Shown: in pieces, positions 8,900 through 26,550 of the stretch
Numbering within the stretch: the first letter of the stretch is position 1
Layout: the number at the start of each line of letters is the position of its first letter
Program-made: the position numbers and the translations under genes
The notes under the pieces: generated by a model
Seen by the model: the letters and a program-made list of their open reading frames with translations, nothing else
The model's database searches: none
Told to the model about the DNA's origin: nothing
Source of the DNA: Actinomycetota bacterium
GTDB lineage: Bacteria; Actinomycetota; Acidimicrobiia; IMCC26256; PALSA-610
Direction: 5' to 3'
Length of the DNA: 64,000 nucleotides
Assembly: GCA_005779395.1 (NCBI GenBank)
Contig: SXJP01000040.1
Span: 16,970-80,969, forward strand

Positions 8900-8900
8900 G

Positions 8901-9793: not shown

Positions 9794-10455
9794 CAGTGAT
9801 CAGCCTTCGCGTTGTGGCCGTTGTGTGATTCTGTGGCATGGGTAGGCGCCAACGCAATGTTGCTATCGACGGTCTGGCCGTCCTCGGGCGCACGCACGCC
9901 GAAGCCAAGTTCTCCCGACCAGTTCACCCGGCCTTCGTAGTCAGAGCGACCCGAAGACGAGGTCGCGCGCATCCACGCACTCGTGTGGTCGTCTTCGTCA
10001 CCGCGCCAGTATTCCCACGGCATCCGTTTAGCCCGCCCGTCATCACCTACGAGTAGCTCGTTCTTGGTGTAGATCGCGTCTTGGCGGTTCGCGAAACTGA
10101 ACTCGAACAACTTGGTCTCGGTAATGGCTTGTGTCGGGCACGCCTCTACACAAAGGTCGCAGTGAATACACCGCAGGTAATTGATCTCGTATGTGAAACC
10201 GAACCGCTCGCCGGGGCTGACAGGGTTGTCCGGAGGGTTGTCGCCGCCTCGCACATAGATGCACTTGGCAGGGCAGACTCCAGCACATAGTTCACAGCCG
10301 ATGCACTTTTCCATGCCGTCTTCATAACGATTGAGAACGTGTCGGCCGTGAAGACGTTGAGGCTTTGCACGCTTCTCTTCTGGGTACGGAACCGTGACGC
10401 GCTTCTTCTTGCCCATCTGGCGAAGCGTCACTCCGAAACCTTTTGCAAGGCCCAT
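9793..10455 (-). CDS. nuoI: NADH-quinone oxidoreductase subunit I
   Basis: [12 protein letters not shown] and [12 protein letters not shown]; ATG 10455 overlaps the nuoH stop. Confidence 0.95.
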
Positions 10456-11678
10456 TAGCGGAACTCCTCCACCGTCTCGCCCGACTTGGGCATACACAAA
10501 TACAACAAGCCATACGCGGCACCGGCAATTCCAAACGACAGCACGCCAGCGGCCGCCGGATTCCAGCCACGATCGCCGAGCACGAGGATTCCAGCAGTCA
10601 CGAGCACCCAAAGAACGGCCAACTCGATGAGCCATTTCCATCCGAACGCCATGAGTTGGTCGTAGCGAAGTCGCGGGACAGATGCACGAAGCCACACCGT
10701 TCCGAACGTAAGCAAAAGCACCTTGCCTACGAACCAAAGAATAGGGACGACCGTGCCGTTAACCCATCCTGATTGACCAAACCGCGCTGGCATGAACATC
10801 GGACCGTTAGGGCCCCCAAGAAACAAAGTGACCGCGACAGCCGACATCGTTATGATGTTCATGAACTCAGCCAAGAAGAAGATCGCGAATCGGATACCCG
10901 AATACTCGGTTACGAATCCTCCGACGAGTTCTTGTTCGGCTTCAACAAAGTCGAATGGAGGGTGGTTCGTTTCTGCGATTGCAGCGATAATGAAAATTAC
11001 GAACCCGAGAGCCGCTGGCACGACATAGAAGTTGCTCAAGTTTTGCAGGATGCCATCGGTATTCGTCCACGATTGCTGGTTCACAATCTCACGCGTGCTC
11101 ATCGTTCCGGCACGCATAAGCACAGACAGGATGCCAAGGCCGAACGCCGCTTCGTACGACAACATTTGTGCGCTGGCTCGTACCGAACCAAGCAGCGGAT
11201 ACTTAGATCCAGACGACCAGCCTGCGAGCATCACCCCATAAACGGCGATACCCGAGCAACCGAGAATAAACATGGCCCCAATTGGTAGGTCGACAACCTG
11301 AAGGTACGTCTCGTGGCCGAGAACATTGATCTTGCCGCCAACCGGGATCACGCAAAACATCAGGAACGCTGGCAGGATCGAAAGATATGGCGCAAGTCTG
11401 AAAATTGGCTTGTCGGCCGAACTCGGTATCGACTGTTCCTTGAAGAAGAGTTTGATGCCGTCGGCGAGTGTCTGCAAGATCCCGAACGGACCCGCATTTG
11501 CTGGGCCTGTGCGGTTCTGCATGTCTGCGATCCACTTGCGCATACCCCAGATGTAAAGCATCACCGAAACGAGCAACACGACGAACGCGATGACAACCTT
11601 TAGTAATACGACTACGAAGATCGAGCCCCAAAGACCATCACCGTTAAACAGTGGGTCCGCTGCAAACAACGCGTTCAT
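10455..11678 (-). CDS. nuoH: NADH-quinone oxidoreductase subunit H
   Basis: [46 protein letters not shown]. Confidence 0.96.
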
Positions 11679-14305
11679 CGGAGAGTCTCGACTCGAATAT
11701 CGGTCACTGAAACTGAAGCGTCGATGAGTTCGGATGCGCCAGTGCCATCAGCAGAAAAACCGAGCGAAGCGGTACCTGGGGCAATGCCGCGCGCTGCCTT
11801 CAGTTCTACCGTGATGCTCCCGCGCGAGCTAGTTGCTTTCACGGATTCGCCGCTCAGCACTCCGAGGCGTGCAGCGTCGGCTGAGGAAACAAGCATCGTT
11901 GGTGCCTTCTTAAGCCCGACGAGCGACGGTGACTCCGCAACGATACGACCTCCGTCGTAAAGCTTGCGGCCAACATTGACTCGCAGAGCGTATGCGTCAC
12001 GCTGCGGAATCGACCTCGGTGCCACAACACGGTCCCAAACGAAAAGTGTCAACGCATCTTCAGTCGCAATTGTTCGGTCGATCTCTGCTGTTTCATCGAC
12101 ATCGCTGGCCTCAACGGCAACGTCGTCTCCATCTGCGCGAATCGGCTCCCAACTCAAGGAGTACTCGATGTCGAGAGATGAGCCGCCACGTCGGAAGACA
12201 ACCTCGCCGAGGTGGTCTGCGAAAGGCAACACAACTCCGTCGCGGGCGTTTCGAATAGTGGCCGTCGACGCTCCAGCCCATGCCGGCGCCACACGACTGA
12301 ATTCTTCGGTGATTTCATCGACCGTCTCAAGATCGAAATCTGAACCCATGCGCTGCGCTAGTTCAGATGCGATACGCCAATCGTCGAGCGCAAGTCCGCT
12401 TGCTGAGACCTTACGGCTGACTCTCTGCACGCGCCCTTCTAGATTCGTGACAGTGCCACCCTGTTCGGCCCAGAGAGTGCAAGGCATGAATACCTTGGCG
12501 CGACGGTTTGAAGGAGTTTCGAATGCATCGATTGCAATAACTACGCCGACAGTATCGAGTGCTTGCTTAGCTAGCGATCGATCCGGGAAATCCGCGAGCG
12601 GGTCGGCGCCAACAAGCACGAGGACATGAATCTTGCCCTCAGCGCATGCCCGAAGTATTCCTTCGGTGCCGAGCCCGCGCTCGGCTGGCACGCTTCCCCA
12701 GTTCGAAGTGAAATGAACTCGTCCCGAATCGAGGCTCACCCGGCCCGGCAAGAATCCCGGTGCGAGTCCCGCTTCGAGTGCACCATGCACGTTCGACCGA
12801 CGCAGCGCAGACAGGAACCGGACACGTGGCAACGCTCCGAGCGCCGCCGCTGCGCTCACGACTGTGTCATCGCGCTCTGCCAAAGACGTACGGCCGAGTA
12901 TTACAACGATGTTTCCCTCGCGGCTGCCGATCGATCTTGTGGCCGCAGCGATCGTTTCATTCGCTGGCGTCGCCCCGCCGATTGCCGAGGCGAGTTGTTC
13001 GGCAACCAAGCCTTGCTCGCCAGGCGCCGCACCTAACGCATGCGTGACGTACTTGCTCAAGCCGTGTGGTGCCGCAGAAAGGTCTACTAGCGGAACGCCG
13101 AGTTCAAGCGCAGCACGCTTCACGCGAAGGAACAACACGGGGAGCTCTTCTTTGAGATCACCAGCACAAAGGACAATCGCGGCCGCGTTATCGAGGTCGC
13201 TGATTTGAGCACGATCCGAACCAAGAACAACCTCGGCAGCTATGCCGTCGCCGAGTTGAGCGTCGACGTTGTCTGTGCCGATGACGCCCTTTGTGAGTCG
13301 CGCCCACGCATATGCGCTCTCGTTTGTACCGCTCGCCCCGCCGATCATGGCAATTGCGCCACCGCCGTGCAAGTTCTTAGCGCTCTTCAGTTCCGCCACC
13401 GCAGCATCAAGCGCCTGCGGCCACGACGCTTCCCGGCCACCAACCCGCGGAGTAAGAACCCTTGCTGCACTGTGTACATGTTCGTAGCCGAAGCGGCCCT
13501 TGTCGCACAACCAACCCTGGTTCACCGGTTCAGAATCGACACCGAGCAACCGCACGATTTGATTACTTGAACTTTGCACAGCTCCACGACAATGCACGGC
13601 ACATGTCGTGCAACTCGTCTCAACTGTCGCAAGGTCCCACGGGCGCGCCTTAAATCGGTACGGCTTGGCCGTGAGTGCACCGACGGGACAGATCTGCACA
13701 ACATTTCCAGAGAAGTACGACGAAAATGGGTCGTCAGGAAAATTCAGGACCTGCGTGTGATCGCCACGATCAACGAAACTAATGAGCGGATCGCCTGCAA
13801 TCTCGTCTGCGAACCGGGTACAGCGCGCACACTGAATACAACGTTCGCGGTCGAGCAAGACAAGATCGCTGATTGCAATCGGCTTTTCGAAGTGACGCTT
13901 TTCTTCTACGAAACGAGACTCGACTGGCCCAAATGCAAGTGTCGTGTCTTGCAGCGGGCACTCGCCTCCGCGATCGCAAACCGGGCAATCGAGCGGATGA
14001 TTGATGAGCAACAATTCGAGTACGCCGTCTTGCGCCGCTTTCACGCTGTCGGTGTCTGTGTGACAAACCATTGCTTCACTAACCGGCATCGTGCATGCTG
14101 GCGGGAAACCACGGATACCGTCGACTTCGACGAGACACATGCGACACATGCCGACGGGCTTCATGCGCTCGTGCCAACAAAAACGCGGGATGTAGATGCC
14201 GTTGTCTTGCGCGACTTTGATGAGAAGTTCACCTGGGCGCGCTTCGATGCTTTTGCCATCGATTGTTACGGTCACTGTCGTCTTGGCTTCGTTCACAGCT
14301 GTCAT
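11675..14305 (-). CDS. nuoG: NADH-quinone oxidoreductase subunit G
   Basis: PRFC..CRMCLVE, HPLDCPVCDRGGEC, CIQCARC, CTTCAVHC..WLCDKG (N7). Confidence 0.95.
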   Translation of the reverse strand: MTAVNEAKTTVTVTIDGKSIEARPGELLIKVAQDNGIYIPRFCWHERMKPVGMCRMCLVEVDGIRGFPPACTMPVSEAMVCHTDTDSVKAAQDGVLELLLINHPLDCPVCDRGGECPLQDTTLAFGPVESRFVEEKRHFEKPIAISDLVLLDRERCIQCARCTRFADEIAGDPLISFVDRGDHTQVLNFPDDPFSSYFSGNVVQICPVGALTAKPYRFKARPWDLATVETSCTTCAVHCRGAVQSSSNQIVRLLGVDSEPVNQGWLCDKGRFGYEHVHSAARVLTPRVGGREASWPQALDAAVAELKSAKNLHGGGAIAMIGGASGTNESAYAWARLTKGVIGTDNVDAQLGDGIAAEVVLGSDRAQISDLDNAAAIVLCAGDLKEELPVLFLRVKRAALELGVPLVDLSAAPHGLSKYVTHALGAAPGEQGLVAEQLASAIGGATPANETIAAATRSIGSREGNIVVILGRTSLAERDDTVVSAAAALGALPRVRFLSALRRSNVHGALEAGLAPGFLPGRVSLDSGRVHFTSNWGSVPAERGLGTEGILRACAEGKIHVLVLVGADPLADFPDRSLAKQALDTVGVVIAIDAFETPSNRRAKVFMPCTLWAEQGGTVTNLEGRVQRVSRKVSASGLALDDWRIASELAQRMGSDFDLETVDEITEEFSRVAPAWAGASTATIRNARDGVVLPFADHLGEVVFRRGGSSLDIEYSLSWEPIRADGDDVAVEASDVDETAEIDRTIATEDALTLFVWDRVVAPRSIPQRDAYALRVNVGRKLYDGGRIVAESPSLVGLKKAPTMLVSSADAARLGVLSGESVKATSSRGSITVELKAARGIAPGTASLGFSADGTGASELIDASVSVTDIRVETLR

Positions 14306-15651
14306 GAATTAACCCTGACGTTCACGGCGATGCCCGGTCGACCACCACTGCACGCAGCGTCGACCTCGGCTCGGAAGTATTTCTCGAGGCTCGCTACAGC
14401 GCTTACTGGCGACGGTCCGAGCGGACAGATAGTGGTCTGCGTGAACGGTGCTCGCAAGACATCGGGCGAGACGTTCGCGCTCATCGACAACAGTAACTCC
14501 ATGTCGGTCGGGCGGCCTTGCCCATGGCTCATGCGATACAAGATCTTCTCGATCCATCCGGTGCCTTCGCGGCACGGCGTGCACTTGCCACAGCTTTCGT
14601 GCGCATAAAACTTAGCTAGACGCCAAGCGACCAACACCGGGTCCGTGCTCTGGTCGTAGACCATGATTGCGCCAGAGCCAAGAGTTGTACCAAGTTTGGC
14701 TGTGATGTCATCGATGTCGTAGACCTGGTCGAGGTGCTCGTCGCAGTTCACGAGCCATTGGAACGATGCCCCACCGGGAAGGAAGAATTTCAGTTCTTTG
14801 TCGTCGCGAAGTCCCCCACAAAGTTCGAAAATGATTTCGCGGAAAGTCATGCCGAATTCGATCTCATAAATTCCGGGGTTCTTGATGTGACCCGAAATTG
14901 CAGCAACCCGAGTACCGGTACTGCGCCCAACGCCTAGTTTGGCGTACTCGGCCCCGCCCATCTTGATGATGTGTGTAAGAGTCGAGGCTGTTTCAACGTT
15001 GTTGACCACCGTCGGTTTCGCGTACACACCTGAGTGGATCGGAAGAGGTGGCTTAATTCGCGGCATACCGCGCTTGCCTTCGAGACTCTCGATCAGTGCG
15101 CTTTCTTCGCCACAGATATATGCACCGGCTCCGCGGTGTACAACGATGTCGAGGCTGAAGCCCGAACCTTGAATATTTTCGCCGACCCAGCCGTTTGCGG
15201 AAGCTTCTTTCACCGCATTGACTACGCGGTCATACCCGAGTGCGAACTCGCCGCGCAGATAGATGAAGGCCTTGTTGATGCCACATGCAAACGCCTCGAT
15301 GCAGACGCCTTCTACGAGGGCATGCGGATCCTTTTCGATGATCTCGCGGTCCTTGAAAGTGGAAGGCTCGCCCTCGTCGCCGTTGATCACAAGGTAACGC
15401 GGGAAGACGTCCGCTGGGAGCGATTCCCACTTGATCGCCGTCGGGAAGTTCGCCCCGCCTCGCCCGCGTAGACCAGACGCCTTGACTTGCGCCAAGAGGT
15501 CGGCTGCATCGCCCTTGCGTAGGACATCTGCCCAAATTTGGTACGCACCGTCGGCGCGGGCGTTTTCGTACTTCCATGCATCTACAACGTCGTGGAGTCT
15601 GCGCGTGACTATGCGCGTCTCGCGTACCTCAATCTTTTTTGTGTCAGTCAT
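14302..15651 (-). CDS. nuoF: NADH-quinone oxidoreductase subunit F
   Basis: GLRGRGG, GAGAYICGEESAL, ESCGKCTPCREG..TICPLG. Confidence 0.95.
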   Translation of the reverse strand: MTDTKKIEVRETRIVTRRLHDVVDAWKYENARADGAYQIWADVLRKGDAADLLAQVKASGLRGRGGANFPTAIKWESLPADVFPRYLVINGDEGEPSTFKDREIIEKDPHALVEGVCIEAFACGINKAFIYLRGEFALGYDRVVNAVKEASANGWVGENIQGSGFSLDIVVHRGAGAYICGEESALIESLEGKRGMPRIKPPLPIHSGVYAKPTVVNNVETASTLTHIIKMGGAEYAKLGVGRSTGTRVAAISGHIKNPGIYEIEFGMTFREIIFELCGGLRDDKELKFFLPGGASFQWLVNCDEHLDQVYDIDDITAKLGTTLGSGAIMVYDQSTDPVLVAWRLAKFYAHESCGKCTPCREGTGWIEKILYRMSHGQGRPTDMELLLSMSANVSPDVLRAPFTQTTICPLGPSPVSAVASLEKYFRAEVDAACSGGRPGIAVNVRVNS

Positions 15652-16136
15652 TTCAGACCGCCTGACACTCCACGTGGTTGCAGCACGCCAGACTTGTAAT
15701 CGTCGACTATGGCTGCTGCCATCTCAGGTACCAAGTGTTCGTGGTACTCGTAGTTCACCTGCATCGCCGGGGCATTCCCACACGCAGCAAGGCACTCAAC
15801 CTCTTCCACGAACACGTCATCGTCCGCTGCGTAGCGGTCGTTGAGGTGTTCAAGGATTTCGGGACCACCAACTACAAGACAGGTCACGTTCGTGCACACG
15901 CTTACCACTAGCTTCCCGCATGGCCGACGCTTGTACATCGTGTAGAAACTGCAAACACCTTGGACGTCGGCGGGCGTTGTTCCTACGAGGTCTGCAATCT
16001 CTGCCATGGCCTCTGTTGTTAGCCAACCATCTTGATCCTGTGCGATGTGGGCTAGCGGAAGTATGGCTGAATGAGCATCTGGATACTGCGCGATAACGGA
16101 CTGCGCTCGTGCGAGATTCTCGGGTGTGAAACTCAT
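15648..16136 (-). CDS. nuoE: NADH-quinone oxidoreductase subunit E
   Basis: SFYTMY, CTNVTC, ECLAACGNAP. Confidence 0.93.
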   Translation of the reverse strand: MSFTPENLARAQSVIAQYPDAHSAILPLAHIAQDQDGWLTTEAMAEIADLVGTTPADVQGVCSFYTMYKRRPCGKLVVSVCTNVTCLVVGGPEILEHLNDRYAADDDVFVEEVECLAACGNAPAMQVNYEYHEHLVPEMAAAIVDDYKSGVLQPRGVSGGLK

Positions 16137-17419
16137 CGATCGACCTCACCCAAGATCGGGTCGATGCTCGAAACGATTGCGACGGCATCGGCGACTAGAG
16201 CGTTACGCACCATTGGGCCCATTGATTGAAGGTTGTAAAATGATGGACCGCGAACATGCATGCGTAGCGGCTTCGCTGAACCGTCGCTCACGATGTAGCA
16301 ACCGATCTCTCCACGTGGACTCTCAACTGCAACATACGTTTCCCCTGCAGGAACTTTGAATCCTTCTGTAAACAATTTGAAATGGTGAATGAGCGCTTCC
16401 ATCGACTCGTCGATGCGCGCACGCGGTGGTGGCGTTACTTTTGCGTCATCTACTCGATAGTCGCCCGCAGGCATTTTCGCCACGCACTGACGCACGATCT
16501 TGATTGACTCGTAGATCTCTTCAAGCCGAACGCGCCACCGGTCGTAGACATCGCCAGCGGTTGCGTAGACAACGTCAAAGTCGACCTCGTTGTATTTGAG
16601 ATACGGCTGTGACTTGCGAAGGTCCCATGCGAATCCAGTGCTGCGCAAGATCGGACCCGTAATTGAAAGATCGAGGCATTCTTGAGTCGTGATCGTGCCA
16701 ACGCCAACGAGTCGGCTTTTCCAGATCGGGTTCTCCGTGAGAAGGTCGGCATAGTCGCGCACACCTGCTTCGACTTTTTCGAGGGTTGCTAAGACGTCGG
16801 TAGCCCAACCGTCTGGGAGGTCTGCTGCGACTCCTCCGACGCGAATGAAATTGTGGTTCATCCGTAGTCCGGTAATGCTCTCGAGGAGGCGAAGGGTTTC
16901 TTCGCGCTCGCGCCAGCCGTAAATCATCATCGAGACCGCACCGATGTCCATGCCGTTCGTGGCTTGGAACAAAAGGTGAGAGCTAATCCGGTTGAGTTCG
17001 ACAAGCATCATTCGGATCCACTGCGCACGATCGGGGACTTCGATTTCGAGAAGTTTCTCGACTGCCATGCAGTACACGAGTTCATTCGAAAGCGGTGATG
17101 CGTAATCCATGCGGGTCACGTTCGTGCAGCCCTGCACGTAGCTCAGTTCTTCGCCGGTTTTTTCCATGCCTGTATGCAGGTAACCGATGACGGCTTTGGC
17201 GTTAACGACTTCCTCGGAGTCGAGCTCCATCATGACGCGCAATACGCCGTGAGTTGACGGGTGCTGAGGACCCATGTTGATGAGCATCGTGTCGCCGAGT
17301 TCGTCGTCTGGCCACGGCGCGCCAGTCACGACCAATTCCTTTTGCGTCAACTTGAGCTTCTGTTTGCCCTCGTCTGTTTGACGACGAAGTCGGCTGAACA
17401 TTTTCGATCTCTCGGTCAT
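16133..17419 (-). CDS. nuoD: NADH-quinone oxidoreductase subunit D
   Basis: NMGPQHPSTHGVLR, GYLHTGMEK, ESPRGE, DPILGEVDR. Confidence 0.96.
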   Translation of the reverse strand: MTERSKMFSRLRRQTDEGKQKLKLTQKELVVTGAPWPDDELGDTMLINMGPQHPSTHGVLRVMMELDSEEVVNAKAVIGYLHTGMEKTGEELSYVQGCTNVTRMDYASPLSNELVYCMAVEKLLEIEVPDRAQWIRMMLVELNRISSHLLFQATNGMDIGAVSMMIYGWREREETLRLLESITGLRMNHNFIRVGGVAADLPDGWATDVLATLEKVEAGVRDYADLLTENPIWKSRLVGVGTITTQECLDLSITGPILRSTGFAWDLRKSQPYLKYNEVDFDVVYATAGDVYDRWRVRLEEIYESIKIVRQCVAKMPAGDYRVDDAKVTPPPRARIDESMEALIHHFKLFTEGFKVPAGETYVAVESPRGEIGCYIVSDGSAKPLRMHVRGPSFYNLQSMGPMVRNALVADAVAIVSSIDPILGEVDR

Positions 17420-17967
17420 CGCGGACTCGGATCAGTCTTGAATGTCACAGGGACACGCGCTGCTGCAAAGTCCTTGCGCAACGGGTGCCCTTCCCACTCG
17501 TCCGGCATCATGATGCGGGTGAGGTCGGGGTGACCTTCAAAGTTGATGCCAAATAGATCGAACACTTCCCGTTCGGCGAAGTTCGCGCCCGAAAAGATTG
17601 GGGTAACAGACGGCACCGTTGGATCTGTCGAAGGAACCTCGCAGATGACTCGGATTCGACGGTTGCGAGCATGGCTAAGGAAGTTCGCGATTACCTCGAA
17701 CCGTTCTGGCTCGACACCCGATGGCAGATTTCGTGCCGGGTTCGTGAGGTGGTCAACGGCTGTCACATCGACGCACATCGTGAACTGCTGCTCGTCTCGG
17801 AGCAGCTTTGCCGCTTCTGCGAGCTTCGAACGTTCGAGATACACAACCGGCTGGGCAAGTGAGTCTCTGTAGATCGCGCCGAACTGAGCACAAAGGACCG
17901 TCGCCACGTCATCGACATCCACCGGCGCGTTATTCGTCTCTGTGGCTTCGTCTGACATGTCGCTCAA
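17416..17967 (-). CDS. nuoC: NADH-quinone oxidoreductase subunit C
   Basis: EREVFDLFGINFEGHPDLTRIMMPDEWEGHPLRKDF. Confidence 0.95.
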   Translation of the reverse strand: MSDMSDEATETNNAPVDVDDVATVLCAQFGAIYRDSLAQPVVYLERSKLAEAAKLLRDEQQFTMCVDVTAVDHLTNPARNLPSGVEPERFEVIANFLSHARNRRIRVICEVPSTDPTVPSVTPIFSGANFAEREVFDLFGINFEGHPDLTRIMMPDEWEGHPLRKDFAAARVPVTFKTDPSPR

Positions 17968-17991
17968 GTTCTTGTCGTTTACTAGTGAGGA

Positions 17992-18546
17992 TCAGGCTGG
18001 TGCTGTGGCTTCAGCGTTTAGTTGGATAGCAGCACCGCCGGTATGGCTGTTGGCCCGCCGACGCATTAGCTCGCCGCTACGGATTTGTTCGTGCAGGGTC
18101 AGGATGCCGTGCATAAGTGTCTCTGGGCCAGGAGGGCAGCCAGGCACATAGACATCTACCGGCACGATCTGGTCAACGCCTTGCACGATCGCGTAATTGT
18201 TGAACATCCCGCCGCTGCTTGCACATACGCCCATTGAGATGACCCACTTGGGTTCGACCATCTGGTCATATACCTGACGAAGTACAGGCGCCATCTTTTG
18301 TGAGACGCGTCCAGCGACAATCATCAGGTCGGCTTGACGCGGGCTAGCTCGAAATACTTCCATGCCGTAACGAGCGATGTCGTAGTGCGCGGCACCCGAT
18401 GCCATCATTTCGATTGCGCAGCAGGCGAGCCCAAATGTTGCTGGAAAAACAGAGTTGCGACGTGCCCACTTGACTAAATCTTCGAGCATTCCTGTAGCGA
18501 ACCCATGTGGGACTGCTTCGAGACCAATGTGTGGAAGTTCGGTCAT
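17992..18546 (-). CDS. nuoB: NADH-quinone oxidoreductase subunit B
   Basis: [24 protein letters not shown]; ATG 18546 overlaps the nuoA stop. Confidence 0.96.
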
Positions 18547-18995
18547 GCGGCTTGTCCTGTTGTGCCTTCGGTGAGTGCAGGATCGAGTACCGCAACGGAT
18601 GTACGACGTACTGGAACTATCTCTCGGATGACCTGTGCCACAGGACCCCATGCGAGTGCGCCAACAGACAGTAGGTATGCAAACGGAATTAGGAGGACGA
18701 GCACAAAAATCGTTATCGCTACGAGTCCGAATACGCCAAGACCTCTCATCACCATGGCGAACGGATAGAGAAACACGATCTCAACATCAAGAACGATGAA
18801 ACTCATGGCTACCAAGAAGAACTTCACTGGGAAACGCTCTGCAGGTTCTGATTCTGGAACGATGCCACACTCGTACGCGGCTTGTTTTGCGCTGTTCGGA
18901 TTGCGTGGACCAAGCAAGATCGACGCGACAAATGACGCAAGCACAAACACAATTACAAGTGCAATCATGCCAACAAGCGGCAGGTAATCGTTCAC
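18543..18995 (-). CDS. nuoA: NADH-quinone oxidoreductase subunit A
   Basis: [18 protein letters not shown]. Confidence 0.94.
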
Positions 18996-19002
18996 GTTGA
19001 CG

Positions 19003-19008
19003 AAACTA
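19003..19008 (-). promoter_or_regulatory. Putative -10 element (TAGTTT) of a leaderless nuoA-N transcript
   Basis: TANNNT hexamer 7 nt upstream of GTG 18995; no Shine-Dalgarno visible. Confidence 0.4.
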
Positions 19009-19064
19009 ACCGGCGCGCCCGCTGTGGCTGCTCATCGGGCGACTCAAATTTGCACGTGAATCGG

Positions 19065-20336
19065 CTAAGGCTCTGGACCGATCTTCACGATCTGCGCGAC
19101 GAGTTTGTATGCAGCTTCGGCCGGACCAAGTTCGTCTGGTCGCATCAGGTTCGCCATTATTCGCAACACCCATTCCATGAGCGACCTGTTGTGCATGCCG
19201 ACGCGAGCTAATTCGCGCATGATCGCGGGATTGCCTATCGCCTTCACGAAGGCCCGCGCCACTTTGAAATACAAGCCGTAGATTTCTTGCAATCGTTCTT
19301 CGTATGTAAGTAGTGCGAGTCCATCGCCACTTGTTAGTGCGAGGCTCACGGCATCTGCTGCGAGTCTGCCCGTCTCAAAAGCAGTCGAGATGCCTTCGCC
19401 GTTGAATGGATTAACGGACCCGGCCGCATCACCAACGACGATCCATGTCGGTCCGACATGCGGGGTAACGCAGCCACCGGTTGGCAGGCGTCCCCCAGTT
19501 GCCGGACCACATGATGTCTCGGGCTTTATTCCCCAACGCTCAGGGGCTGTCTGCGTAAACGCATCCATCAGCTTGGTCGTATTTATGTCTTTCCAGCCTT
19601 TGAAGGTCGATAGCAAGCCACAGCCGACATTTATTGTGCCGTCACCAACCGGAAAAATCCATCCATAACCGGGCAAATGGTTTCCATCGCGGTCTTTGAT
19701 GTCTAGGTGGCTCTCGATCCAGGGGTCGTCGTGCATCGGGCTTTCGTAATAGCCCCGAATTGCCATGCCGAGCGGGTAGCTCCGATCCCTAGAAGTACCC
19801 AAAGCCCTTCCGAATCGCCCGTTCGCACCATCGGCAATAACCACATATTTCGCCTGAACCGTTACTTTTTCGCCACTATCTTTGTGCTTCACTACCACGC
19901 CACGCACGATTCCGTGCTCGAGCACGGGTTCTATTGCCTCGGCGCCTGTCCAAAGCTCCGCTCCTGCTTTAACTGCGTTGTCTGCGACCATCTGATCGAG
20001 TTCTCGCCTGCGCACGACATACCCGTACGAAGGGAACTCGGGGTGCGACGGCCATGGCATTTCTAGCGTTACCCCATGGGCGATCGCCCGTAGCCCGTCG
20101 TATCGCAGGTAGTTGTCCGCAAGGCGGTCACCGAGACCCATGTCGCTGAGTTGGCGGACTGCGCGTGGCGTTAGTCCATCACCACAGGTTTTCTCTCGCG
20201 GGAAGTCTTTCTTCTCTATGCAGAGCACCCGATGCCCGTTTTGTCCGAGCCAGAAAGCGCACGCAGCACCAGCAGGTCCAGCGCCGACAATTACCGCGTC
20301 AAAAACTGCGTCGTTGCTTGCCGATTTCACCGCCAT
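19065..20336 (-). CDS. menJ: Geranylgeranyl reductase family protein, probable menaquinone reductase MenJ
   Basis: VIVGAGPAG, FPREKTCGDGLTPR, GYGWIFP, GDAAGSVNPFNGEGI; located upstream of nuoA as in other Actinobacteria. Confidence 0.8.
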   Translation of the reverse strand: MAVKSASNDAVFDAVIVGAGPAGAACAFWLGQNGHRVLCIEKKDFPREKTCGDGLTPRAVRQLSDMGLGDRLADNYLRYDGLRAIAHGVTLEMPWPSHPEFPSYGYVVRRRELDQMVADNAVKAGAELWTGAEAIEPVLEHGIVRGVVVKHKDSGEKVTVQAKYVVIADGANGRFGRALGTSRDRSYPLGMAIRGYYESPMHDDPWIESHLDIKDRDGNHLPGYGWIFPVGDGTINVGCGLLSTFKGWKDINTTKLMDAFTQTAPERWGIKPETSCGPATGGRLPTGGCVTPHVGPTWIVVGDAAGSVNPFNGEGISTAFETGRLAADAVSLALTSGDGLALLTYEERLQEIYGLYFKVARAFVKAIGNPAIMRELARVGMHNRSLMEWVLRIMANLMRPDELGPAEAAYKLVAQIVKIGPEP

Positions 20337-20543
20337 GTGATCCATCGTCGCGCACCGAGACACGCATGCGTTCATCGACTATGCGAGCATGTGATTTTGT
20401 GCATGGATCACGGCGTGAGAATCGCGAATTTTCATGGTTGTCGTCGATGAGTCGCGTCTTCATCTAGCGTGCTAGTAAGCCATGCAAGAAGCGACACGAA
20501 CGCCGCTTCGCCGCCACTCGACTACCCGCAGGAGTACACAGGA

Positions 20544-21062
20544 ATGAGGCATGTTCTCGGTTTAGCCGTGCCCAATATCCTGCCCGAAACGTTGGGCTTG
20601 CGCGCTGCTGGTCGTTTGATTTGGACGACAGTCCTATTCGTAGTTTTGCTTTCACCTGTCGTGGTTGCGTTGAAACGCCAGAAGTCAAAACTCAAAGCAA
20701 CTTGGGCTCAAGCAATGGCTGGCGCTGTTTATGTTTGGGTGCTAATGGTCCTCGCCTACGGATCGATTCCGCATGAGTGGCTCACGTTCGCAAACGGTTA
20801 CCTCAAGTGGGATGAGTCTCACTTCTTGCTCACTTCTGGCCAATCGATTGGTCCGTTCAACTGGCTCAACCTAGACGTCGATAAGCGCGCCATAACCGAC
20901 ACAGTCGCCACGCTTATCTATGTTGTGTTGGCCGTCGCCAACTTCAAAATGTTTGCGGCATGGCAACGGCGCCCAGAGGCGCCATCTGTTAGCACCGCAG
21001 TCGAGACTGAAAAGGTCATTGGTACATCTGCATTCGGACGCCCAGTAACGGTGAAGTCGTAA
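20544..21062 (+). CDS. Hypothetical 3-TM membrane protein, first gene of the cytochrome b6-type operon
   Basis: AGGAG upstream of ATG 20544; three hydrophobic segments; 4-nt gap to the ferredoxin. Confidence 0.7.
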   Translation: MRHVLGLAVPNILPETLGLRAAGRLIWTTVLFVVLLSPVVVALKRQKSKLKATWAQAMAGAVYVWVLMVLAYGSIPHEWLTFANGYLKWDESHFLLTSGQSIGPFNWLNLDVDKRAITDTVATLIYVVLAVANFKMFAAWQRRPEAPSVSTAVETEKVIGTSAFGRPVTVKS

Positions 21063-21066
21063 AGAC

Positions 21067-21480
21067 ATGGCCAAGATCGACGCCAATCCGCCGATGCCAG
21101 ACTTCAGCACGGACTACGTCCTGCAAGAGGTCGATCCAAATTGGCTCACCAAGGCAGTCAAGCCAAAGCAGTTTTTGCACATTGACCAAGCCGAATGCAT
21201 CATGTGTGAAGGCTGCGTCGACATTTGCCCTTGGAAGTGCATTCACATGTTGTCGCTCGATGCGATCACAGACGCGACAAATGCCGACCAACCAGGTGAC
21301 GATCCGACCGACCATGTGTTTTTTGTCGTCGACGAAGACATCTGCACGCGCTGCGCACTTTGCGTCGATCGCTGCCCAACAGGCGTCATCGTGTTAGGCA
21401 AGGTCACAGATAAATGGTCCGATGGGGACCCGAACGACCGTACTAATCGTCACGGCTACGCCTACGGCGTCCGTTTCTAA
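21067..21480 (+). CDS. 2[4Fe-4S] dicluster ferredoxin
   Basis: CIMCEGCVDICP and CTRCALCVDRCP. Confidence 0.92.
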   Translation: MAKIDANPPMPDFSTDYVLQEVDPNWLTKAVKPKQFLHIDQAECIMCEGCVDICPWKCIHMLSLDAITDATNADQPGDDPTDHVFFVVDEDICTRCALCVDRCPTGVIVLGKVTDKWSDGDPNDRTNRHGYAYGVRF

Positions 21481-21500
21481 GTAGACCTCAGGAGAAACTC

Positions 21501-22295
21501 GTGGCCGAAGCCAACGGGAACAATGGATCGGGTTTAGGCGCCAAGGTGGCCGAACGCGCCACGAAGATGTGGGACAACACTCGCAACTCTCAAGCCTGGA
21601 ACTCAATCTTCCGGCCGGGTTCGATCTATCGCAAGGGCTACACAGACAGCCCTCGTAACCGCAGTTACGTGATCATGAACAGCGTCTTGTTCCACCTCCA
21701 CCCCGTGAAGGTGAAGCGCCACGCTGTCAAGGTGAGCTACACCTTATGCCTCGGCGGCCTCTCGTTTTTCTTGTTCATTCTGCTTACGGTCACAGGCATC
21801 TTCTTGATGTTCTTCTACCGACCGACTGCTACCGAAGCGTGGGCGACGGTTCAAGATCTCGAAACAGCAGTGGCATTTGGATCGCTAGTAAGAAATATGC
21901 ATCGGTGGGGCGCTCACCTAATGGTGTTGTCGGTCTTCTTGCACATGAGTCGCGTCTTTTATCACGGTGCCTATAAGTCGCCACGGGAGTTCAACTGGGT
22001 TATCGGCGTCATCCTCTTGCTGCTCACCTTGTTGCTTTCGTTCACGGGCTATCTACTCCCGTGGGACCAACTCGCACTTTGGGCCGTAACCGTAGGTACC
22101 AACATGATGGGCTACACGCCCGTGCTTGGTAACCAGGTTCGTTTCGTATTGCTTGGTTCTAAAGAGATCGGGAACGACACGCTCTTGCGGTGGTACGTGT
22201 TGCACGTGCTCATGTTCCCGTTCGTCATCGTGATCTTCATGGCGGTTCACTTCTGGCGCGTCCGCAAGGATGGCGGCATTTCCGGGCCCCTCTAG
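21501..22295 (+). CDS. Cytochrome b6-like subunit (N-terminal half of a split cytochrome b)
   Basis: CLGG, MHRW..H, TGYLLPWDQ, H-x14-H in helix D, C-terminal GISGPL as in PetB. Confidence 0.92.
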   Translation: MAEANGNNGSGLGAKVAERATKMWDNTRNSQAWNSIFRPGSIYRKGYTDSPRNRSYVIMNSVLFHLHPVKVKRHAVKVSYTLCLGGLSFFLFILLTVTGIFLMFFYRPTATEAWATVQDLETAVAFGSLVRNMHRWGAHLMVLSVFLHMSRVFYHGAYKSPREFNWVIGVILLLLTLLLSFTGYLLPWDQLALWAVTVGTNMMGYTPVLGNQVRFVLLGSKEIGNDTLLRWYVLHVLMFPFVIVIFMAVHFWRVRKDGGISGPL

Positions 22296-22310
22296 GCCGA
22301 TAGGACAGGT

Positions 22311-23135
22311 ATGGCTGAGGTTCCAGAACACTTACTACGTCGTAGCGCCGAACGCCGCGCGGCGTTATCAGGCGAAGAAGCGCCAGCCGAGGCGCCCGTA
22401 GCTGCCGACGTCCCCGCACAAGAGGCAAGTGCCGAAGAAGCCGTCGCCGCGCCCGCAGACACAGGCGAAAAGATCACCGAAAGTGTCGGGGGCGTTCCAG
22501 CACACCTCTTAGAGCGTGCTCGTTTGAAGAAACTCGCAGCCGCTGGCGGCGACGCTGGCGCAAGTGGCGCAGTCGCTACGGCAACAGCAGCTAAGGCGCC
22601 TGCCATGACAGCAGGTACACCGACAGGAACTGGCCCGAGTGGCCACACTCAGCGCCTGCTGACCGTGGTGAAGGCTGGATCGATCCAACAGACCAAAGCT
22701 GAAGCCCAAGACAAGGTCCATGTCTGGCCTCACTTGCTTGCCATCGAGTTCGCATCGATCATGATTCTGATGGCACTCACGACCATCTTCTCTGCACTCG
22801 TGAAGGCACCACTTCTAGGCCTCGCTGATGTCAACCAGACGCCGAACCCGTCGAAGGCTCCCTGGTACTTCTTGGGCCTTCAGGAACTTCTCACCATGTT
22901 CCACCCAATGGTCGCCGGTGTGACGATCCCTGGCGTCGCACTCGTCATCGTTGCGCTCGCCCCATATGTAGATAAGAACCCGTCAAACAAACCAGCCGAC
23001 CGCAAGTTTGCGATCGCGATGATGACGATGTTCCTTATGTTCTGGGCTGTACTTGTGATTATTGGATCGTTCTTCCGCGGCGAAGGCTTCAACTTCGTGT
23101 TCCCGTGGAACAACCATGTGTTCTTCGAGCTCTAG
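22311..23135 (+). CDS. Subunit IV-like (C-terminal half of cytochrome b) with Ala-rich N-terminal extension
   Basis: VWPHLL, TPNPSKAPWYFLGL (PEWY-equivalent), 3 TM helices. Confidence 0.85.
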   Translation: MAEVPEHLLRRSAERRAALSGEEAPAEAPVAADVPAQEASAEEAVAAPADTGEKITESVGGVPAHLLERARLKKLAAAGGDAGASGAVATATAAKAPAMTAGTPTGTGPSGHTQRLLTVVKAGSIQQTKAEAQDKVHVWPHLLAIEFASIMILMALTTIFSALVKAPLLGLADVNQTPNPSKAPWYFLGLQELLTMFHPMVAGVTIPGVALVIVALAPYVDKNPSNKPADRKFAIAMMTMFLMFWAVLVIIGSFFRGEGFNFVFPWNNHVFFEL

Positions 23136-23149
23136 GAGAATAAAGGGCA

Positions 23150-24004
23150 GTGCTACCAGCAGCAATCTTCGCCATTTTCGGGGCCATCGTGCTCGTCTTG
23201 GTCGTCACAACGGCCCGACGTTCGAGCACGAGCGGACGGCTCTCTCGCGAGACCAAGTCGCGCGACAAATCCGGTCCAGCCTCAACGAGCGCCACTACCG
23301 AACTTGAAGCGGCAGATTCGGCCGTCGCTCGCGAACGTGCAGCACTTGCCCAGAACGAAGCCGTATCTGGGGTCCCAGCAATGGTTGGCGAGACTGGAAT
23401 CGCTCGTTGGGAGCCCGTAGACGAAGAAACTCTCGGAGTTTCGCGTCGTCAGTTCCTCAACCGTGCCAACATCTCGATGCTCGGAATTGGGATGCTCCCA
23501 ATTTTTGGCGTCTCCCTAATTGCGTTCTTGTACCCAAGTGGCGCAGGCGGGTTCGGATCCAAGGTCACCGTCGGGAAATTGTCCGACATCCTTGCCTCGA
23601 TCACAGCAAAGAAGCAACCGTTCTACGCGGCAAGTGCGCGCACCTACATTCAGATTTTCGACAACGCAAAGACCACGGCCGCAGAAGTAACAAGCGCCTA
23701 CGAAGGTCGCGAAGTCGAGATGGGTCTCCCCGACGGTTACGTCGCCTTGTGGCAGCGATGCGTGCACCTTGGCTGCCGGGTTCCGTGGTGTCAGAGTTCG
23801 CAGTGGTTCGAATGCCCCTGCCACGGATCCAAGTACAGCAAGATCGGCGAAAAGCGCGACGGGCCCGCACCGCGTGGTCTTGACCGATTCGCAACCGAAG
23901 TCGTCGACGGCAACCTCGTCGTAAACACAGGCGTCATCATTCAGGGCCCGCCTATCGGCACGACCACAATCGACCAGAAGCAGGAAGGTCCGGCGTGCGT
24001 CTGA
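23150..24004 (+). CDS. Rieske [2Fe-2S] subunit
   Basis: CVHLGC, CPCHGSKY, GPAPRGL, internal SRRQFL Tat motif. Confidence 0.93.
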   Translation: MLPAAIFAIFGAIVLVLVVTTARRSSTSGRLSRETKSRDKSGPASTSATTELEAADSAVARERAALAQNEAVSGVPAMVGETGIARWEPVDEETLGVSRRQFLNRANISMLGIGMLPIFGVSLIAFLYPSGAGGFGSKVTVGKLSDILASITAKKQPFYAASARTYIQIFDNAKTTAAEVTSAYEGREVEMGLPDGYVALWQRCVHLGCRVPWCQSSQWFECPCHGSKYSKIGEKRDGPAPRGLDRFATEVVDGNLVVNTGVIIQGPPIGTTTIDQKQEGPACV

Positions 24005-24059
24005 TGCAACTTTTCGCAACTAAAGGCCCGTCACTGAGCACCGAGAGGACAACGCAGGT

Positions 24060-25484
24060 ATGAGGCTCCTCGCTGCCTGGGATTGGCACAGATTCACGAA
24101 GTTCGACGTCTGGGGCGTCCTGTTCTGGGTCAATGCGATCGCACTATTAGCACTACTCATCGTTGCTGTCGTCTCAATCTCGCGTGACAAGCAAGACAAG
24201 CCAGCAGCGAACACGGTCGCGTTCTTGGCCGACGACGAACTCGAAACTTTCCGGCTAGAGCGAGTGCTCGGCTGGGCGCTCGTATTCTCGGCAATTCTCG
24301 CAGTTAGCTACGGCGTCTACTGGCTGCGCGAGCCTTCTCGTCAGCACGACTCCGACATCTACTTCGCAGAAGGAGCGATCGAGCGCGGCGAAGAACTGTT
24401 CGCCAACGAATCGTTCGAGGTCTACAACTCTGCGAAGTCTCTCAAGTGCGCAGACTGCCACGGCGGACCTGGCATCGATGCCGACCTCGGCCGCGAAGTA
24501 GTTGGTGGCGGTGGGTCCGCGCCATACACGCACATCATCGACCCAGACAATGCGTTCTCCGTTTCGTGGAGCGCGCCTGCTCTCAACACCGTGATGTATC
24601 GCTTCTCGCCTGAGGAAGTCCGTGAGATCATCACCTACGGGCGGCCAGGAACGCCGATGCAGGCATGGGGTACAGACGGCGACGGTCCGAAGAATGCTCA
24701 GAGCGTCACCGACCTTGTCGCATATATCGCTTCAATACAAATCTCGCCAGATGAAGCCCAAGGAAAAATCGCAGCCAACCTCAAAGCGGCCCAAGAACAG
24801 TCCGCCTCGCAGGTAAAGAGCGCAGAAGAAGCAGTAGCCGCTGCGACCGAAGCCCTCGACGAAGCGCAAACAGCTAGCGACGAGATTAAGGACCAAGAGT
24901 CGAACGAGGGACAACTTGCCATCCGCAAGGTTGAAGCTGCCGCGAAGAAACTCGAAGTTGCACAAGCGAAGCTAGATTGGGCCAAGGAGTGGGCAGACAA
25001 GCGTTCCGGAATCAGTGACGGCCAGTTGCTGTTCGAAATGAACTGTGCTCGTTGCCACACCAAGAACTGGAGTTTGTTCAACCCGAGCAACCCATACCTA
25101 CGCCCAGAGACATTGCTCGGTCCGGCTGGTGGGGGCGGCAACACAGGCTTCAGTCTCGTGAACGTAGAGAAACTTCGGTTCAACAACGGACTAGACGCAG
25201 AAGGCAAGCCAGACCCGACGTCGGGCTGGACTAGCCACAACCTGTTCGTGACAAACGGTTCTAACAAGCAGAAGCCATACGGCAACGGCGGCAGCGGAAG
25301 CGGTCGCATGCCAGGCCAATGCAACACCGACTTCTTCGCTTCCTTCGACATCCTCGAGCACAGCGGGTGCATGCTCACCACAGTGCAGATCGAAGCGATC
25401 GTTGCGTACGAACGCTGTGGACTCCTAGCAACATTGCCAGACCACAGTGCAGCCAAATATGACACAGACTGCGATAAGCCGTAG
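24060..25484 (+). CDS. Membrane-anchored diheme cytochrome c subunit
   Basis: CADCH and CARCH; candidate Met ligands in TPMQAW and GRMPG; two N-terminal TM helices. Confidence 0.85.
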   Translation: MRLLAAWDWHRFTKFDVWGVLFWVNAIALLALLIVAVVSISRDKQDKPAANTVAFLADDELETFRLERVLGWALVFSAILAVSYGVYWLREPSRQHDSDIYFAEGAIERGEELFANESFEVYNSAKSLKCADCHGGPGIDADLGREVVGGGGSAPYTHIIDPDNAFSVSWSAPALNTVMYRFSPEEVREIITYGRPGTPMQAWGTDGDGPKNAQSVTDLVAYIASIQISPDEAQGKIAANLKAAQEQSASQVKSAEEAVAAATEALDEAQTASDEIKDQESNEGQLAIRKVEAAAKKLEVAQAKLDWAKEWADKRSGISDGQLLFEMNCARCHTKNWSLFNPSNPYLRPETLLGPAGGGGNTGFSLVNVEKLRFNNGLDAEGKPDPTSGWTSHNLFVTNGSNKQKPYGNGGSGSGRMPGQCNTDFFASFDILEHSGCMLTTVQIEAIVAYERCGLLATLPDHSAAKYDTDCDKP

Positions 25485-25515
25485 TCCTAAAAGATTTCAG
25501 AGAAGAGGAGACCCC

Positions 25516-26373
25516 GTGCAGGTACTGCACATTCTCGCTAGCGAAGGCGGCGGCGCCAAGAACCTTTGGGATCCCACGATCCTTGGTGTTCTCACGGTGC
25601 TGTCTGGCGTCGTGCTGTTCTGTGGTTCGACATACATGTTGCTCACAACGAACATCGGAGCCCGCCAGGGTTTCCTAGTTGCATTCTGCAGCCTCACCGG
25701 AATAACGATGTTGCTCGGCGCTCTGTGGCTAACGACCAACACGCCACTCAACGTTCCGAAGGGACGCGTGGCCCAGTGGATCCCCGTTTCCGAAGAGCCG
25801 ACTGATGCCATCGTTGCCAATCTGAGTGACTCAGCGATTCAAGCACTCAGGTCAATCGATTCAGAAGGCACGCCCGTACCCGAGAAGGGTCCGGCCGACT
25901 CGGACGTCCTTGAGCGCGGCGAGCTTCGCCCTGCAGTCGAAGCGGCGCTAGTAAAAGAAAAGACTGAAGGCCCCCACGAAGTCGAAGCCGGACCGCTAGT
26001 GCTCGTGTGCGATACATGTGCAGGCGATGTCATCACCAACCTCGATGAACTCAACTCGTACACGATTGGTGGCGGCACCAAGAACCTCTTCTGGCACAAC
26101 ACTCAATACGCAGCCGTTGAGTTCTGCACTCGCTTTGCTCTAGACCCGGTTTTTGCTGACCCAAGTGCCGAAATCAAAGACGCCGAGTGCGACCCAGCCA
26201 TCGCCCACAAATTCCTTCTCCTAAAGCGCGACTTCGGATCACTTCGGTTACCTGCACTGTTCTACACACTCGTTTCCGGGTTGCTGCTCGGACTTGGCCT
26301 GTACGCAATGCACATCAAGGAACGGTCCGAACAACGGACCTCGGCAGGCGCACTCACGCCGACCAACGCCTAG
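25516..26373 (+). CDS. Hypothetical membrane protein (2 N-terminal TM, soluble Cys-containing domain, 1 C-terminal TM)
   Basis: GAGGAG RBS before GTG 25516; hydrophobicity pattern. Confidence 0.75.
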   Translation: MQVLHILASEGGGAKNLWDPTILGVLTVLSGVVLFCGSTYMLLTTNIGARQGFLVAFCSLTGITMLLGALWLTTNTPLNVPKGRVAQWIPVSEEPTDAIVANLSDSAIQALRSIDSEGTPVPEKGPADSDVLERGELRPAVEAALVKEKTEGPHEVEAGPLVLVCDTCAGDVITNLDELNSYTIGGGTKNLFWHNTQYAAVEFCTRFALDPVFADPSAEIKDAECDPAIAHKFLLLKRDFGSLRLPALFYTLVSGLLLGLGLYAMHIKERSEQRTSAGALTPTNA

Positions 26374-26382
26374 GAGAACACG

Positions 26383-26550
26383 ATGATAAGAAACCTGATC
26401 GCCATCGCCCCTCAACCGGTCGACACAACCGAACAAGGCCCGCTCGGATTCATTCTGCTAGCGGTGCTGTGTACAGCGATCATGGCGAGCCTGTTCTACA
26501 TGGACCGAATCCGTCAACGCGCTAGTGATCGTCGCGACTCAGAGCAGTAG
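26383..26550 (+). CDS. Unannotated 55-aa single-TM small protein
   Basis: AGGAG RBS; MIRNLIAIAPQPVDTTEQGPLGFILLAVLCTAIMASLFYMDRIRQRASDRRDSEQ; fills the gap up to the hemL stop. Confidence 0.7.
   Translation: MIRNLIAIAPQPVDTTEQGPLGFILLAVLCTAIMASLFYMDRIRQRASDRRDSEQ

Follow-up and report, generated by a model that had tools for sequence, protein, structure and literature searches.

A dedicated ferredoxin gene in a b6-type complex III operon of Acidimicrobiia suggests a flavin-less relative of the anammox Rieske/cytochrome b complexes

Eight closely packed open reading frames (ORFs), spanning 20469 to 26550 on the + strand of a 64,000-nucleotide stretch of an Actinomycetota genome (contig SXJP01000040.1; hereafter the window), encode, as judged from sequence, a quinol:cytochrome c oxidoreductase (complex III) of the b6 type, together with a small 2[4Fe-4S] ferredoxin. 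In our best reading, the operon represents a ferredoxin-only, flavin-less variant of the complexes proposed for anaerobic ammonium-oxidizing (anammox) bacteria. With a probability of roughly 45%, the ferredoxin would be bound at the cytoplasmic side and wired to haem bH/ci of the complex, with an outward electron flow being favoured. We prefer a bound subunit because the gene keeps its place in the operon, its product is under strong constraint, the b6 protein offers a conserved extension of opposite charge, clean ferredoxin-b6 fusions exist, and there is a kinship with the anammox complexes. New here is the ferredoxin-only variant of a known, experimentally unproven kind of Rieske/cytochrome b complex. 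A split cytochrome b with PEWY or APWY had already been recorded for an Acidimicrobidae strain in 2014.

Cytochrome b is split, because the Pfam families PF00033 (Cytochrome_B, E value 2.7e-48) and PF00032 (Cytochrom_B_C, 1.6e-08) fall in two successive ORFs. The first, cytochrome b6 (21501..22295, +, 264 amino acids (aa)), is the four-helix half, and the second, subunit IV (22311..23135, +, 274 aa), the three-helix half. The seven transmembrane (TM) helices (4 + 3) come from alignment for b6 and from three predicted segments for subunit IV. The best solved relative of b6 is a cytochrome b6f chain (6rqf_I, 175.9 bits, E 1.1e-50), with b6 residues 78-264 aligning to residues 30-215 of the 215-residue solved b6. 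Cys83, in the stretch TLCLGG, aligns to residue 35 of solved b6 chains (Cys35 of PetB, in the CxGG motif), and the protein ends in GISGPL, as these chains do. In b6-type proteins, the haem-b histidines are spaced by 13 residues in helix B and by 14 in helix D. Here, His134/His148 are 13 residues apart and His235/His250 14 apart. None of the 78 aligned b6 sequences departs from Cys83 or from any of the four histidines, and by its position at PetB Cys35 this cysteine probably carries haem ci. The motif at the quinol-oxidizing (Qo) site, found in subunit IV, is APWY (NPSKAPWYF), with A183-P184-W185-Y186 invariant in 71/71 sequences. Pfam, structure alignment and invariance have therefore borne out the whole set of features named by the original prediction, which had been made from the letters of the window: the split into b6 and subunit IV, the LCLGG cysteine, the 14-residue helix D spacing, GISGPL and APWY. 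A split b6 in an actinobacterium is, however, no novelty. Kao & Hunte (2014, PMC4122944) already list five split pairs with PEWY or APWY motifs in Actinobacteria, including Rubrobacter, Patulibacter and Conexibacter (Rubrobacteridae among them) and Ilumatobacter coccineum. These pairs cluster with either the PEWY-cytochrome c clade or the APWY clade, and the clade of Ilumatobacter is not stated there.

The partners on the other face complete a complex III. The Rieske [2Fe-2S] protein (23150..24004, +, 284 aa, with a match to the Rieske family) has the cluster boxes CVHLGC...CPCHGSKY. Its best solved match is 9rk4_A, the Kuste4569 protein of Kuenenia (52.9 bits, E 4e-13), narrowly above PetC of b6f. 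The signature S..Y, present in 68 of the 70 orthologues, is rated as high-potential, above 260 mV (PMC4122944). An additional N-terminal TM helix and a linker of about 80 residues precede a twin-arginine-like motif, SRRQFL (window 23150-23470); a strict pattern, which covers only the strict form, finds such a motif in 18 of the 70 orthologues. The next gene encodes a membrane-anchored dihaem cytochrome c of class I (24060..25484, +, 474 aa, matching cytochrome c families), with two CXXCH motifs and a long linker rich in Ala, Glu and Lys. Both haem motifs are found in 66 of 68 orthologues.

The operon is not a chance arrangement, since its gene order recurs in related genomes. A genome scan with b6 as query returned at least 600 matching stretches, at least 594 of them encoding a relative, and the best 80 loci were analysed. 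Their b6 is 78-91% identical to that of the window. The titles are nearly all Acidimicrobiia, Acidimicrobiales, Ilumatobacteraceae, Microthrixaceae, Iamia, Aquihabitans or unclassified Actinomycetota, with a few discordant bins, and the source of at least one locus, Aquihabitans sp. G128, is in culture and has been sequenced completely. Judging by these sequences, the operon is common within the class Acidimicrobiia. In 79 of the 80 loci, tblastn detects the ferredoxin gene (21067..21480, +) immediately 5' of b6 and in the same orientation. In 77 loci its ORF is complete, with 137-139 aa, and in two it is cut by a contig end. The predicted distance of 20 nucleotides (nt) to b6 agrees with the ORF coordinates (stop 21480, start 21501), and the median across the loci is 26 nt. 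The single exception (L080:7956-8750), from an Ilumatobacteraceae bin, is a solitary b6 with 82% identity, in which the conserved N-terminal extension is complete. Genes for a ferredoxin, subunit IV or a Rieske protein are missing from its surroundings. This b6 is flanked by a large membrane protein and by a sigma-factor/ABC transporter region, and may be either an orphan paralogue or the product of a faulty assembly.

Synteny is accompanied by constraint. The median identity to the window is 84% for b6, 67% for the ferredoxin, 58% for subunit IV, 45% for the Rieske protein, 33% for mem308, 32% for cytochrome c and 31% for mem197, the last-named and mem308 being two membrane proteins of the operon. 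The ferredoxin thus ranks second among the operon products, after b6. Conservation of the operon had been put forward as a check in the original prediction, and the outcome speaks for it: the ferredoxin gene keeps its place 5' of b6 and is more constrained than the genes for subunit IV, the Rieske protein and cytochrome c. The pairwise distances of ferredoxin and b6 are correlated (r 0.73, a value reached by 0 of 999 permutations), which vertical co-inheritance alone would also yield.

The proximity of genes is by itself weak support for binding, and the ferredoxin might act outside the complex, either as a co-transcribed soluble housekeeping ferredoxin or in a separate small membrane module with mem197. 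The latter protein (20544..21062, +) is basic (isoelectric point 9.9) and has three predicted TM segments. It was found in 74 of the 80 loci, and its stop codon precedes the ferredoxin start by a median of 3 nt, with an overlap of 1-4 nt in 13 of the 74. Because the two genes appear to be translationally coupled in this way, mem197 is a possible immediate partner of the ferredoxin. Nevertheless, we regard a place outside the complex as improbable. The slot between mem197 and b6 is as fixed as described above, the ferredoxin is far better conserved than mem197, two clean in-frame fusions with b6 occur in a sister lineage, and the b6 extension is both conserved and oppositely charged.

The ferredoxin itself (137 aa, Fer4 families in Pfam) carries two CxxCxxCxxxCP motifs and is acidic, with a net charge of -11. 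It lacks a TM or hydrophobic segment, and no signal or twin-arginine motif was seen in it by eye. Among 78 aligned sequences, 54 of the 137 columns are invariant, nine cysteines included. The ninth, Cys58 in CPWKC (window 21238-21240), is present in 78/78 sequences in addition to the eight cluster cysteines. Besides the cluster motifs, the tails are conserved, with DANPP at the N-terminus and RxxxHGYxYGxR at the C-terminus.

A possible seat for this protein is found on b6, which is extended at its N-terminus by about 48 residues compared to PetB. The fraction of majority residues is 0.39 for residues 1-27, 0.95 for residues 28-57 and 0.99 for residues 58-82, next to 0.92 for the haem-binding core. 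Residues 28-57 are net basic, are not present in PetB and lie ahead of the first residue matched by the ExtP model. The net charge of residues 28-82 is +9, opposite to the -11 of the ferredoxin. His65, His67 and His74 of this extension are invariant in 78/78 sequences, and so are Arg253, Arg255 and Lys256 at the C-terminal end, on the side of the quinone-reducing (Qi) site. Subunit IV also has a cytoplasmic N-terminal extension, of about 135 residues with conserved blocks. Within it, the motif (I/V)PxHLLxR occurs twice (window 22320-22343 and 22494-22517). In its strict form the motif is present twice in 36 of the 71 orthologues and once in the other 35, and it could be a docking motif.

Gene fusions point to the same place. 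The ferredoxin profile was searched against 1.84 billion representatives and matched 969 proteins with E values of 0.001 or less, 60 of them with 1e-30 or less, and with few full-length clusters. The ferredoxin is contained in 106 longer database proteins, 18 of which have both Fer4 and cytochrome b domains, all singletons. In two of these, P0151 (JGI, 407 aa) and P0152 (ENA, a truncated protein), the tail of the ferredoxin is joined in frame to the start of b6. The two are 93% identical and differ in their five-residue linkers, and their ferredoxin part is about 52% identical to that of the window, suggesting a genuine fusion in a sister lineage. Such clean fusions place the ferredoxin at the N-terminus of b6, on the cytoplasmic side. 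Most of the other fused proteins were discounted because they contain stretches garbled as if by frameshifts, lack the tail or are joined in a chimeric way. P0135 and P0139, encoded on contigs of about 1.1-1.2 kb, begin with the N-terminal half of b6 and pass over into the ferredoxin within a FLHIDQ-like stretch that both have in common. They probably result from misassembly at this short repeat, which the two neighbouring genes share. The cytoplasmic position proposed by the original prediction is consistent with the two b6 fusions, the lack of a hydrophobic segment and the lack of an export signal recognizable by eye.

The relatives of the ferredoxin are found among proteins which conduct electrons. 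Its best solved relatives are polyferredoxins of the FwdF type (7bkb_K, 1.9e-12; also 5t5i_F). A sister family (P0276, 40% identical) is titled Actinomycetota bacterium, plus one Methylomirabilales bin. Outside its own family, the profile matches the C-terminal 2[4Fe-4S] domain of GltD-like oxidoreductases of about 600 aa that bind flavin adenine dinucleotide (FAD). In P0346, for example, profile positions 3-114 fall on residues 495-609 with 42% identity. These proteins consist of an N-terminal cluster domain, a domain for FAD and nicotinamide adenine dinucleotide (phosphate) (NAD(P)), and a C-terminal dicluster domain, and we infer that this is the make-up of the anammox reductase subunit as well. 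By this analogy, the ferredoxin of the window may correspond to the docking domain of the Kuenenia reductases. No GltD-like gene was found in the window or in the 80 loci besides the ferredoxin itself.

In Kuenenia stuttgartiensis, the Rieske/cytochrome b complexes Kuste4569-4574 and Kustd1480-1485 have a cytoplasmic NAD(P) oxidoreductase subunit (PMC12954380; ‘subfamily G’ in Dibrova 2017). The idea of cytoplasmic iron-sulphur subunits on complexes of the haem-ci type has already been published, both for anammox bacteria and for this subfamily. In AlphaFold3 models, the reductase subunits are attached to the b6 dimer from its cytoplasmic side, a series of four iron-sulphur clusters leads to FAD, and Arg511 and Arg550 of the reductase are found at the b6 dimer interface (PMC12954380). 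The clusters were placed from NfnABC and from formylmethanofuran dehydrogenase 5t5i. The same models contain a new haem b between one histidine from each b6 N-terminal region, His43 of Kuste4571 or His62 of Kustd1481 (PMC12954380). By analogy, an extra haem bridging the b6 dimer may be used in the Acidimicrobiia complex too, and His65, His67 and His74 are candidates for its ligands.

The two systems share a b6 and a subunit IV of the haem-cN kind, and a Rieske protein of high-potential type, that of the window being closest among solved proteins to Kuste4569, with a common CPCHGSKY box. In both, the operon has a gene for an iron-sulphur cluster protein, which is modelled on the cytoplasmic side in Kuenenia and may be bound there in the Acidimicrobiia. 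Homology also connects the ferredoxin with GltD-like FAD oxidoreductases, through the 2[4Fe-4S] domain at their C-terminus. They differ in that the cytoplasmic module of the Acidimicrobiia is reduced to 137 aa and two clusters, without the FAD/NAD(P) domain or the N-terminal cluster pair. Furthermore, subunit IV has three helices here and five in Kuenenia, and the partner on the outer face is a dihaem cytochrome c instead of a hexa- or octahaem protein or one resembling hydroxylamine oxidoreductase (HAO). The hosts of the Acidimicrobiia operon are aerobic heterotrophs, in contrast to the anammox bacteria.

Taken together, the complex would be a menaquinol:cytochrome c oxidoreductase built on the b6 plan from b6, subunit IV, the Rieske protein and the membrane-anchored dihaem cytochrome c. 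The ferredoxin would be stably bound on the basic, conserved N-terminal extension of b6, possibly with a contribution of the N-terminal region of subunit IV or of mem197. Its two clusters would connect the cytoplasm, over a short electron path, with haem bH and haem ci at the end of the low-potential chain. When menaquinol is oxidized at Qo, the first electron would go to the Rieske centre of about +300 mV, to cytochrome c and to an oxidase. The second, at very low potential on the b haems, would exit via haem ci and the iron-sulphur clusters to a low-potential acceptor in the cytoplasm.

The host organisms presumably use menaquinone, and a MenJ-like gene next to the operon is consistent with this. 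If they do, the potential argument made for Kuenenia carries over, and for this reason we favour an outward, bifurcating flow. A Rieske protein of about +300 mV in combination with menaquinone is argued to imply a potential down to about -475 mV for haem bP and of about -330 mV for haem bN, enough to reduce NAD(P)+ (PMC12954380). The midpoint potentials of the two Kuenenia Rieske proteins, Kuste4569 (9rk4) and Kustd1480 (9rk3), are +303 and +335 mV, respectively, and the same outward mechanism was proposed for the complexes with NAD(P) reductase (PMC12954380). Indirect support for bifurcation in the Acidimicrobiia comes, by analogy, from the S..Y signature and from Kuste4569 being the nearest solved Rieske protein. 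In its full form, the idea implies that a 2[4Fe-4S] ferredoxin is hard-wired to haem ci and that an aerobic, quinone-based bifurcation takes place, in which one electron goes to oxygen and the other, at ferredoxin potential, to the cytoplasm. This stronger claim is speculative, and we think it doubtful at present.

Electrons could also flow in the reverse direction. The bound ferredoxin would then take electrons from cytoplasmic donors, for example a soluble ferredoxin reduced by 2-oxoacid:ferredoxin oxidoreductases, and pass them via haem ci to menaquinone at Qi, so that the complex would act as a ferredoxin:menaquinone reductase, a role long debated for cyclic flow in b6f. Every argument for a bound subunit on the cytoplasmic side holds equally for this direction. 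A working quinone-reducing Qi site is likely, because Cys83 and the nearby Arg and Lys residues are invariant, and the transfer from ferredoxin potential to menaquinone is downhill. Moreover, haem cn has been proposed to accept electrons from ferredoxin (reviews quoted in Dibrova 2017), and APWY has been linked to complexes which run contrary to the usual direction (PMC4122944). On the other hand, such a role would not need a high-potential Rieske signature, and an enzyme that reduces ferredoxin is not conserved beside the operon in the 80 loci, of which one, from a complete genome, was scanned. Although unlikely when taken alone, reverse flow is nearly as plausible as outward flow.

Supernumerary subunits are common in complex III, and the ferredoxin could be bound without any through electron transfer, as a structural cap, an electron buffer, a redox sensor or an assembly factor (for instance for haem ci). 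As a sensor or buffer, it would tune the Qi site or limit the formation of oxygen radicals. The finding that conservation outside the cluster motifs is strongest in the two tails would fit a docking subunit, and so would the lack of a partner gene in the flanks. However, two intact clusters are costly for a purely structural role, and each of the nine cysteines of the ferredoxin is kept throughout the 78 sequences. The domain is also most closely related to electron wires, namely the FwdF polyferredoxins and the C-terminal domains of GltD-like enzymes. We therefore consider a bound ferredoxin that transfers no electrons rather unlikely.

Several points weigh against our preferred reading of a wired ferredoxin with outward flow. 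In the Pfam scan, the 137-aa ferredoxin shows Fer4 families only and no FAD or NAD(P) domain. A conserved gene for a cytoplasmic partner was not seen in the operon flanks, either across the 80 loci or in the Pfam scan of one complete-genome locus. The 80 loci form a single clade of close relatives and are not independent observations, and adjacent, co-inherited genes need not be binding partners. The retained Arg253, Arg255 and Lys256, together with Cys83, are equally compatible with a normal Q cycle. AlphaFold2 does not help: the model of the ferredoxin monomer is too poor for use (mean predicted local distance difference test (pLDDT) 54.1, predicted template modelling score (pTM) 0.50), and the prediction for P0151, along with 17 other fused proteins, is uninformative (mean pLDDT 41.9, pTM 0.23). 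With regard to Kuenenia, the link between the GltD-like proteins and Kuste4570/Kustd1483 is drawn from the domain make-up and the published description, and the equivalence in position of the three b6 histidines to the haem-bridging ones is putative. Finally, an aerobic heterotroph has no obvious need for low-potential reductant made from quinol.

Among known complexes, those of the APWY clade are the next to consider. This clade crosses phyla, includes Geobacter ExtO/ExtP/ExtQ and had no characterized member at that time, and a reverse operation was suggested for it (PMC4122944). Split, cysteine-bearing cytochromes b are present in many non-phototrophs, Geobacter included (Baymann 2012). The operon resembles the clade in its split cytochrome b, the APWY motif at Qo, the CxGG cysteine, and a Rieske protein of another type than those which accompany PEWY or PDWY. 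It deviates in the haem-ci motif, which is LCLGG as in cyanobacteria and not the WCMGG usual for the clade, and the passages of Kao & Hunte consulted do not mention a ferredoxin for the clade. As for the Geobacter Ext system, b6 is above the cut-off of the NCBIfam ExtP model (305.8 vs 290), whereas subunit IV is below that of ExtQ (54.7 vs 150), and the operon lacks the multihaem cytochromes, the porin and the rhodanese of Ext. Because ExtP passes while ExtQ fails and the other Ext genes are missing, we consider the operon a relative of Ext, not a member. This has a consequence for annotation. Since the ExtP equivalog model passes in an operon that is not an Ext cluster, the b6 of this clade may be mislabelled as the b-type cytochrome of a selenite/tellurite reduction operon.

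The resemblance to b6f (PetB/PetD/PetC) is in b6, for which it is the best solved relative, with the equivalent of Cys35, the helix D spacing and the GISGPL end. In photosynthesis, the partner of b6f is a soluble [2Fe-2S] ferredoxin. In contrast, the Acidimicrobiia operon encodes a 2[4Fe-4S] ferredoxin of its own. A dihaem class I cytochrome c replaces cytochrome f, APWY replaces PEWY, b6 carries the N-terminal extension, and it stays under the cut-off of the NCBIfam cytochrome b6 model (NF002990, 219.3 vs 325).

With the QcrCAB proteins of the bcc-aa3 supercomplex, the operon shares the phylum, a dihaem cytochrome c and presumably the substrate menaquinol. Yet the unsplit cytochrome b chains of 535-573 aa in solved structures of the ‘cytochrome bc1 complex cytochrome b subunit’, which we take to be mycobacterial and corynebacterial QcrB, match b6 with 90.8 bits only, compared to 175.9 for solved b6. 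All actinobacterial models are far under their cut-offs (NF050120 QcrB, 118.5/500; NF050121 QcrA, 22.1/275; NF050122 QcrC, 22/200). QcrB is not known to have the haem-ci cysteine, nor the bcc complex to have a ferredoxin subunit.

A literature search of running text returned no description of a ferredoxin-only subunit and, apart from the entry of 2014, none of the Acidimicrobiia complex, though the operon may be drawn in a figure or supplement. For cyclic flow in b6f, an entry of electrons from ferredoxin or ferredoxin-NADP reductase (FNR) at haem cn is a proposal of long standing. The Acidimicrobiia operon could help to address this question of direct electron exchange between ferredoxin and haem ci in b6-type complexes, that is, the ferredoxin:quinone reductase problem of cyclic photosynthetic flow. 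It could also help to show whether Q-cycle machinery can drive electrons to the potential of NAD(P)H or ferredoxin, as proposed, and never shown, for anammox bacteria. The latter are hard to grow and have large complexes, whereas here a single cytoplasmic module of 137 aa is concerned and the hosts include cultured strains. If bifurcation is true, common aerobic Actinomycetota of freshwater, soil and activated sludge would gain low-potential reductant from quinone.

The remaining products of the operon are less well defined. For mem197 and mem308, there is no Pfam or NCBIfam family. The mem197 ORF has an alternative start at 20469, and the form in the ESM Atlas has 172 aa from 20544. Its database relatives are hypothetical clusters only, Actinomycetota being the commonest phylum. 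The protein mem308 (25447..26373, +, 308 aa, likely true start 25516) is predicted to have three TM segments, carries an acidic domain on the extracytoplasmic side, and was found in 57 of the 80 loci. The original prediction had counted eight products, and the eighth is accounted for by a 55-aa ORF (26383..26550, +), which ends exactly at the end coordinate of the predicted operon. It has one hydrophobic stretch by eye. Matches to it by tblastn (E < 0.01) lie directly 3' of mem308 in 13 of the 80 loci, all from a sub-clade similar to the window, and it is probably a small supernumerary subunit.

Divergent from the operon is a gene for a geranylgeranyl-reductase family protein, the MenJ-like menaquinone reductase mentioned above (19065..20375, -). 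It scores 248 bits against TIGR02032 (cut-off 158.8) and 319.7 bits against the MenJ equivalog, under the cut-off of 700. This neighbour is kept in 43 of the 80 loci, as found by tblastn. Next to it is a complete complex I operon, nuoA-N (3621..18995, -). The possibility that the operon ferredoxin is the complex I subunit NuoI was ruled out, because the nuo operon encodes its own NuoI (9796-10455). Haem biosynthesis genes and Rex are located 3' of the complex III operon. A scan of 18900-27000 against Rfam gave zero RNA families at E up to 0.1.

Besides the complete nuoA-N, the window contains a partial second nuoA-nuoB-nuoC(-D) cluster on the - strand (1-2557), which runs off the window start. 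Relatives of complex I that depend on ferredoxin lack NuoEFG. In the complete genome of Aquihabitans sp. G128 (L047), the complex III genes and then the nuo operon are encoded on one strand. The three neighbours are the same as in the window, and their arrangement is different. The same locus has an extra class I cytochrome c gene (5851-6693, -) between the MenJ-like gene and the operon.

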